Shown: positions 1,313 to 1,436 of the stretch, in pieces
Position numbering within the stretch: the first letter of the stretch is position 1
How the letters are laid out: the number at the start of each line of letters is the position of its first letter
Virus record (IMG/VR): IMGVR_UViG_2718218308_000003
Location: 1-42,271 of that record
Source: a virus
Lineage: Duplodnaviria; Heunggongvirae; Uroviricota; Caudoviricetes
Length of the DNA: 42,271 bases
Reading direction: 5' to 3' (one strand)
Translations under genes and position numbers: made by a program
The notes under the pieces: generated by a model
Database searches by the model: none
Told to the model about the DNA's origin: nothing
What the model saw: only the letters and a program-made list of their open reading frames with translations

Positions 1313-1436
1313 TACCCTCAGGCCTAATGGTTACCGGAAGGAAATCTACCCTAAGGGTGATGGTAATCGGGAGGAAATCTACCCTAAGGGTGATGGTAAA
1401 ATTGACGGGGAAGATAAAAAAATACCCTCAGGGTAT
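1313..1436. repeat. Array of four TACCCT(A/C)AGGGT-type palindromic motifs, including two tandem 31-bp direct repeats; putative regulator-binding sites upstream of alpA
   Basis: Direct repeats GGAAGGAAATCTACCCTAAGGGTGATGGTAA (1336-1366) and GGGAGGAAATCTACCCTAAGGGTGATGGTAA (1369-1399). Palindromic cores start at about 1313 (partial), 1347, 1380 and 1424 (TACCCTCAGGGTA, perfect 6-bp arms), spaced 33-44 bp apart. The array lies between the stop of ORF 1450..2253 and the alpA start. Confidence 0.6.

Follow-up and report, generated by a model that had tools for sequence, protein, structure and literature searches.

Just upstream of alpA, in a 42,271-nucleotide stretch of viral DNA (IMG/VR record IMGVR_UViG_2718218308_000003, Caudoviricetes; the whole stretch is hereafter called the window), lies an array of short palindromes, and the question raised by this locus is which protein the array serves. 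The original prediction, made from the sequence alone, described a cooperative binding array for a dimeric helix-turn-helix (HTH) protein and proposed as binder either AlpA itself or the integrase, possibly together with an excisionase. We found that the palindromic motif follows neither AlpA nor the integrase but the C-terminal module (C-module) of the protein encoded just upstream of the array, here called ORF267, which the original prediction had left out of account. The palindromes are probably the cognate operators of ORF267, through which this protein would gate alpA.

A phased palindrome array upstream of alpA

The three genes concerned all lie on the minus strand: int, coding for a P4-type tyrosine integrase (2376-3590; Pfam Arm-DNA-bind_3, Phage_int_M, and Phage_integrase); ORF267 (1450-2247 with the RefSeq start, 265 amino acids [aa], or up to 2253, 267 aa), a gene without prior annotation located just upstream of the array; and alpA (1047-1244, 65 aa; Pfam PF05930, Phage_AlpA, E 2.4e-19), located downstream of the array, the product of which is identical to WP_000072422 of intact islands. 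From the ORF267 stop to the alpA start, the gap measures 205 bp (1245-1449), and not the 195 bp first given.

Three perfect copies of the 11-bp palindrome ACCCTNAGGGT fall in this gap, at 1348-1358, 1381-1391, and 1424-1434. They are its sole matches in the 42-kb window, even when one mismatch is allowed, which is the outcome of the motif search beyond the array that had been suggested. Chance occurrence was assessed with an analytic Markov expectation and 400 shuffles: the first-order Markov expectation is 0.02 perfect sites per window, and the Poisson probability of at least three sites is ~1e-6, a value that ignores the clustering of all three within 87 bp. The two middle copies (operator-like palindrome ACCCTAAGGGT, with centres at -109 and -142 from the alpA ATG) lie within a tandem repeat at 1327-1399 (2.2 copies, 91-92% identity, 92% matches according to Tandem Repeats Finder), with one palindrome per unit; the true period is 33 bp, instead of the 31 bp initially described. 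The distal copy, centred at -185, extends to a 15-bp palindrome, ATACCCTCAGGGTAT, at 1422-1436 (annotated feature at 1416-1436).

The claim of four palindromes stood for these three copies only: the remaining site, ATACCCTCAGGcc (1312-1324), is mismatched at two positions and belongs to another palindrome. At this promoter-proximal position (1314-1330, centre at -75 from the alpA ATG), a degenerate copy of the motif (1314-1324, GGCCTGAGGGT on the sense strand, with two mismatches, both in one arm) is found inside a 16-bp palindrome (1315-1330, CCATTAGGCCTGAGGG on the sense strand) that differs from the ACCCTNAGGGT palindrome. Relatives have either CCATTAGGCCTAATGG or CCCTCATGCCTGAGGG at this position, and the window has a hybrid of both. 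The centre-to-centre spacings in the window are 34, 33, and 43 bp, where 33-44 bp had been estimated. All these array features were annotated without strand.

Across 156 Escherichia coli genomes, the gap falls into length classes of 290, 301, 323, 356, and 389 bp, which correspond to one to four copies of the 33-bp unit, with or without a 22-bp unit bearing another palindrome. Most relatives have an extra site 22 bp upstream of the distal one; the window allele has lost the 22-bp unit and is a rare derived form. Each of the copy-number changes observed in E. coli (loci L001, L003, L007, and L008) gains or loses exactly one palindrome and keeps the helical phase. The plus-strand open reading frame (ORF) that crosses the array (1327-1650) was rightly regarded as an artefact: it splits in two in the common 22-bp-longer allele, is absent in L005, and has no family match.

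The conservation of the array in related islands, which had been proposed as a check, was found well beyond E. coli strains. In L005 and L006, which encode ORF267 relatives 64-67% identical to that of the window, the sequence between the sites has diverged and the palindromes are kept. In a protein-seeded scan, with each species represented by one genome, arrays were detected in Kluyvera, Raoultella, Pantoea, Symbiopectobacterium, Cedecea, Atlantibacter, Sodalis, and Xenorhabdus; counting Escherichia, no fewer than nine enterobacterial genera have them. A comparison of 40 distinct related arrays shows a near-invariant core, A-CCCT-n-AGGG-T, while flanks and intersite sequence vary. The distances between sites group at 21-24, 32-34, 42-44, and 54-55 bp (Rayleigh R of 0.886 for a period of 10.5 bp), which amounts to ~2, 3, 4, and 5 helical turns. 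Relative to the alpA ATG, site centres are found repeatedly at -108/-109, ~-150, ~-174, and ~-206, and most of the arrays have the -108/-109 site. Many of these 40 arrays are close relatives and the counts are not independent, but the pattern still holds across genera.

The sites are under selection, in helical phase, and positioned relative to alpA, and this pattern across genera indicates that the description of the locus as a phased binding array is correct. The phased palindrome array upstream of alpA is thus real, and the conserved palindromes, their location on one helical face, and their near-fixed distance to alpA point to cooperative binding of the dimer type, as had been predicted.

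Upstream of alpA, three to six copies are present. In the intact 26.8-kb L001 locus, only one match with up to one mismatch was found outside the array, a lone one-mismatch site far off, which suggests that the array is a dedicated target. In the window and in the intact island, the motif is absent from the ORF267 and int promoters, so there is no sign of autoregulation there. A scan of 2.9 million viral contigs, which looked for pairs of palindromes separated by 10-36 bp, yielded 47 loci: in 34, the array occupies its usual place in an alpA island, and the remaining 13 are unrelated tandem repeats.

The same palindrome also has unrelated uses. The 127-kb viral contig L055 (IMGVR_UViG_3300037313_000197) contains 21 ACCCTNAGGGT copies in 14 kb, and 33-bp tandem repeats containing ACCCTAAGGGT are present at 9400-9700 of L042, with neither alpA nor a class-A gene (see below) nearby.

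Co-variation of the motif with the upstream gene

The association between motif and upstream gene was measured on 79 loci picked by AlpA similarity only. All 39 loci with an upstream ORF ending in ...IE(L/K/M)(V/T)ACPI.R (class A; one of these ORFs is frameshifted) have at least two sites, allowing up to one mismatch, and none of the 40 loci with other upstream ORFs has them. These other classes have motifs of their own in the gap before alpA: two copies of ACCGCAATTGCGGT (L086, L108, and L117), TTGCATGCA (L088 and L123), five to six direct copies of CTTCCA(A/C)A (L098, L114, L118, L119, L124, and L129), and GGAGTTATCA or TGATAACTCC (L125, L133, and L135).

ORF267 consists of a variable N-terminal module (N-module), a leucine zipper (~residues 159-186), and a conserved C-module of ~70 aa (~residues 187-255), and a natural 2 x 2 domain swap was found among its relatives. 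The combinations N2 + C_A (L085) and N3 + C_A (L122) come with ACCCTNAGGGT-type sites, and the combinations N2 + C_E (L098) and N3 + C_E (L124) come with CTTCCAAA-type sites. The N-module shared by L085 and L098 is 35% identical (E 3e-21), and that shared by L122 and L124 matches with E 5e-17. The likeness of ORF267 to the proteins of L085, L121, L122, and L112 is restricted to the last 90-120 residues of ORF267. In L044, the C-module is 37% identical and two copies of ACCCTCAGGGT are found right past the stop codon; the next gene there is not alpA but a convergent XRE gene.

Variants of the C-module pair with variants of the palindrome. The VSCPINR variant pairs with ACTATnATAGT, which has the same 5+1+5 form, and the IEIVACPINRN variants of Pasteurellaceae pair with GGGTGATAG/CTATCACCC. 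Furthermore, hhalign shows homology between the C-modules of class A and class B (95%, E 2e-8), which fits one domain family with diversified specificity. The locus shows two features of an operator array, namely copies clustered at the regulated gene, near-absent elsewhere, and with a sequence that co-varies with the adjacent regulator gene.

In the family alignment (A3), three conserved leucines (L169, L176, and L183) have heptad spacing, and in the AlphaFold2 (AF2) model of ORF267 (predicted local distance difference test score, pLDDT, 75) they belong to a long predicted helix, which fits a dimer acting on palindromic sites. The helix is followed in the alignment by the conserved block ERPILL..YRDDDPLYLAIEIRNREWANYDP.ND.ATRGNQ.AI..EL...G.....A.AIELVACPIKR. 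Within this block, the loop corresponding to ORF267 residues 221-226 has the variants ATRGNQ, TIPSQ, SKPTQ, and APKAE. ORF267 has 43 detectable homologues, all from Enterobacterales and all annotated as hypothetical, and a search with the C-module alone matched no more than 47 cluster representatives out of 1.84 billion, in each case as the C-terminal end of a protein of 67-515 aa.

The ORF267 family has no match in Pfam, PHROGs, NCBIfam, or PADLOC and no assignment to a PDB structure. The same four databases gave, for ten other classes of upstream genes, coiled-coil noise and DUF6387 for two classes (L103 and L110), the sole Pfam match among the scanned classes. SEN1998 of ROD21 was considered as a relative of the family and turned out to be a recombination directionality factor (RDF) instead. 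In open-access papers, we found no description of the gene family or of the array, and a full-text search with four motif variants gave just unrelated eukaryotic primer and enhancer matches.

The first binder proposed was AlpA, acting on autoregulatory sites of its own, and the data make this very unlikely. Coherent with the proposal are the location of the array upstream of alpA, the presence of the motif beside AlpA homologues of 74-100% identity in a motif-seeded set, and the activation by AlpA of its own promoter in EcCICFT073 and EcCIMP1. However, in L056 (E. coli 08-00022) and L079-L083, AlpA is 97% identical to that of the window, differing solely at residues 2 and 4, and no ACCCTNAGGGT site is present: the gap contains palindromes of the GTG-N2-CAC type, and in L056 and L079-L082 the upstream gene is of class B. 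Conversely, the motif is present at loci where AlpA is just 74-89% identical. L013, which has the array, and L056, which lacks it, share one AntA/B allele.

EcCIMP1 gives a similar indication: its AlpA is 81% identical and has an identical YSKAWIYRL helix, yet the island has no such sites and no large gene upstream of alpA. The form of the sites also argues against AlpA, given that they are perfect 5+1+5 palindromes and not the direct repeats of monomer sites typical of AlpA or RDF binding. The Pseudomonas AlpA, a much larger protein with the same name, acts as one molecule on a single 6-bp element between -35 and -10 (PMC9371919), which is unlike an array.

The second proposal, arm-type sites of the integrase or an intasome array of integrase and excisionase, deserves almost no credence. 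The integrase does have an Arm DNA-binding domain, but the array (1314-1436) is ~2.3 kb from the att core at 3764-3773, which is too far for arm-type sites. In addition, the integrases of L079-L082, which lack the motif, are 99.3-99.5% identical to that of the window, and many motif-bearing loci have integrases only 59-67% identical. The motif is then independent of integrase identity, and the sites are palindromes set relative to the alpA start codon. Taken together, near-identical AlpA and integrase proteins found with another motif indicate that neither determines the sequence of the sites.

A further explanation does without a binding protein: the palindromes would work as RNA hairpins, that is, as intrinsic terminators or insulators that block read-through from int and ORF267 into alpA. 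The distal palindrome invites this explanation, as on the sense strand it starts 13 nt past the ORF267 stop, is followed by seven T, and was flagged by the terminator scan. Its hairpin is weak (6-bp stem, -5.9 kcal/mol), the other palindrome copies have no T-run, and the T-run is not kept in L006, L024, and others. Moreover, helical phasing and a fixed distance from the ATG are properties of the DNA, and other cassette classes use direct repeats, which are unable to form hairpins. Because the T-run is not conserved and direct repeats are used elsewhere, RNA structure is probably not the general function of these sites, and we consider the explanation highly improbable.

A candidate switch for alpA and its counterparts

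AlpA is the master activator in Gram-negative phage-inducible chromosomal islands (PICIs) and boosts its own promoter (PMC6092414, PMC11773190). Also in these islands, the helper phage turns on the alpA promoters (PMC6092414, PMC11773190). The mechanism that we propose for ORF267 is built on these premises; its binding, its dimerisation, the direction of regulation, and the input from the helper phage are all elements that we infer from the comparison of islands.

In ORF267 dimers, joined by the zipper, two C-modules would sit on each compact 5+1+5 palindrome. With sites two, three, or four turns apart on one face of the DNA, assembly could proceed cooperatively, starting at the strong distal sites and reaching the weak copy at -75. 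The -35 position of a putative alpA promoter of the extended -10 type, TGcCATGAT (1283-1291, minus strand, -47 to -39 from the ATG), would follow directly downstream of this copy. The element was read by eye, a sigma-70 consensus scan of the gap gave no promoter match, and TGn(C/A)AT(C/G/T)AT is present at the equivalent place in other cassette classes. Occupancy of the array would control the transcription of alpA and, through it, satellite excision and replication.

Repression of alpA in the quiescent island seems the more likely direction, in parallel with Stl in staphylococcal islands, and a helper-phage signal sensed by the variable N-module could relieve it. Activation is the main alternative direction and would be equally compatible with the geometry. 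The distal site and its T-run may additionally cut read-through from int and ORF267.

Several observations weigh against ORF267 as the reader of the array. For two helical DNA-binding domains, a palindrome of 11 bp is an unusually compact target, and the sole winged-helix-like topology in the AF2 model is in the N-module, which the motif does not follow. Linkage is the chief caveat: the coding sequence of the C-module, the array, and the alpA promoter form one uninterrupted stretch of DNA, so their co-variation could partly reflect the inheritance of one recombination block. EcCICFT073 and EcCIMP1 lack such a gene and are still induced by the helper, which indicates that an ORF267-type protein is not a universal route to alpA induction. 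Lastly, the alpA promoter is one that we infer from a weak extended -10 only.

Some of these points are shared with a different explanation, in which the gene of the binder lies elsewhere, the most plausible candidate being a helper-phage transcription factor that activates alpA. The motif classes would then correspond to helpers, and the co-variation with the C-module would be a matter of physical linkage only. The published induction of alpA promoters by the helper is what such a factor would explain, and both the contiguity of C-module, array, and promoter and the lack of a clear DNA-binding fold in the C-module are in its favour. On the other hand, among the 2.9 million viral contigs the array is found almost only in alpA islands, and no operator-like array was found in any identifiable helper-phage regulatory region. 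Furthermore, the 39/39 versus 0/40 association outlasts domain swaps and deep divergence of the intersite sequence, and L044 has the array after the gene although alpA is not its neighbour. On balance, we regard an outside binder as unlikely, and ORF267 as the better candidate.

If ORF267 is indeed the reader, the regulatory logic would resemble that of an immunity or master-repressor cassette, for example lambda cI-OR or the Stl of SaPIs (the pathogenicity islands found in Staphylococcus aureus), with a protein unrelated to either. Stl/Rpr regulators of staphylococcal and other Gram-positive PICIs are, like ORF267, island-encoded, highly diverse, and located beside the integrase; they control the switch of the satellite cycle, and their diversity is thought to match the helper-phage inducers. 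However, Stl and ORF267 have no sequence relationship and no detectable relationship of fold. The gene of Stl is divergent from those that Stl represses; in our locus, all genes are co-oriented and the sites are downstream of the regulator gene. The regulated gene also differs, as here it encodes an activator (AlpA), and in our locus repression and inducer binding are presumed.

The lambdoid cI/cro system with OR and OL shares multiple palindromic operators, a strong-to-weak hierarchy, cooperative spacing, and the exchange of regulator gene and operators together as a specificity cassette. Lambda operators are 17 bp long, are bound by HTH dimers, and overlap divergent promoters, whereas the sites described here are 11 bp long, lie 75-207 bp upstream of the start codon at whole-turn spacing, and have an unclassified C-module as candidate reader. 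The positive autoregulation of AlpA at its promoter (PalpA) in EcCICFT073 and EcCIMP1 involves the same gene, position, and kind of element and, for EcCIMP1, the same thrW att site; these two islands have neither a large gene between int and alpA nor a ACCCTNAGGGT array.

Phased arrays are also known from two other settings. Excisionases and RDFs (lambda Xis, P4 Vis, 186 Apl, and P2 Cox) are small winged-helix proteins of the AlpA/Xis kind that bind cooperatively to short, helically phased sites. Their sites are direct repeats at att or at switch promoters and track the RDF, unlike the array described here, which consists of palindromes and does not track AlpA. In centromere-like arrays (F sopC and P1 parS), phased short inverted repeats are found immediately downstream of the gene of the binder, and L044, where the array follows the gene even without alpA, recalls this arrangement. 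Unlike in those systems, a partition ATPase is lacking here, the element is integrated, and the array is placed with respect to the alpA start.

ORF267 is, in any case, a concrete and testable candidate for the control of alpA in a large subset of Gram-negative satellites. We also put forward, tentatively and as something that may well turn out otherwise, a wider hypothesis. The position between int and alpA (the int-alpA slot) in many satellites of Enterobacterales and Pasteurellaceae would host a new class of modular master regulators, each joining a shuffling N-module that acts as sensor to a zipper and to a C-module of a new DNA-binding kind, and each with its own phased operators. Such proteins would be the Gram-negative counterpart of Stl, holding alpA off until a helper protein engages the N-module and thereby setting helper specificity. 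If the model of ORF267 and its operators is right, it would explain the silence of the satellites and the evolution of helper specificity by shuffling of N- and C-modules. It would also provide a new DNA-binding domain, with a recognition code easily read since palindrome variants track domain variants, and orthogonal regulator/operator pairs for engineering.

The alpA leader, RNA elements, and the host island

A stem-loop in the alpA leader (1251-1281, minus strand; ACCTCGT...ATGAGGT, -8.7 kcal/mol) pairs the Shine-Dalgarno sequence. When leaders were folded one by one, the Shine-Dalgarno sequence was fully paired in 13 of 18 distinct leaders of related islands, with differing stem sequences, and the core TAGACGTTA in the loop and 3' arm is near-invariant across cassette classes. 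The leader has no Rfam match, and RNAalifold returned no structure on leaders whose divergent stems were misaligned by MAFFT. If the -10 given above is right, transcripts from PalpA would lack the 5' arm, and the hairpin would silence only read-through transcripts, which is speculative.

Outside the array, the int-alpA RNA motif (Rfam RF02996) is present at 2264-2331 on the minus strand, with 45.5 bits against a gathering threshold of 35.8. In relatives, it is always located just upstream of the variable slot gene or overlaps its start, and this constant position makes it look like the structured leader of the slot gene (here ORF267), not tied to alpA. A LexA-box-like sequence, CTGGTTGAGTATACAG, with one mismatch to CTGT-N8-ACAG, is found at 2360-2375, directly past the int stop and upstream of ORF267.

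The locus is a remnant of a PICI-like, AlpA-type phage satellite integrated at thrW. A 2.8-kb segment of the window is 99-100% identical to thrW islands in more than 100 complete E. coli genomes, the integration site being the tRNA-Thr (CGU) gene adjoining proA. The intact relatives L001 and L002 have the order thrW-int-hypothetical-alpA-antA/B-(YlcI/YnfO)-Icd-like-DUF4222-primase-ProQ/FinO-PerC. As in PICIs, their int, alpA, and primase genes are co-oriented at a tRNA att site, without phage structural modules. Homology of the window to the intact islands ends at ~906, within the first 64 bp of antA/B, where an insertion sequence (IS) transposase ORF (291 aa, minus strand; region 1-906) adjoins the island. 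This end of homology beside the IS indicates that the satellite of the window is a remnant with int, ORF267, and alpA only.

At the other boundary of the island, a copy of the att core TCCTATTATC (3764-3773, minus strand) is located in a partial 3' end of tRNA-Thr. A second TCCTATTATC core is at 40835-40844, within an intact tRNA-Thr gene (40828-40903), and the two cores indicate tandem islands at thrW. The second element, of ~37 kb, lies between the partial copy and the intact gene; among its products are an IS630-like transposase (4376-5407) and a membrane protein resembling acyltransferases (5580-6728). EcCIMP1, a published PICI, uses this thrW att site too, with an identical core (PMC11773190).

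P4-type immunity RNAs (C4 antisense RNA, isrK, and a1/b1 targets) are present in EcCIMP1 (L004, 18600-18827) and in a class-E island (L098, 3947-4175), which indicates that those AlpA-type islands also have a P4-like RNA immunity.

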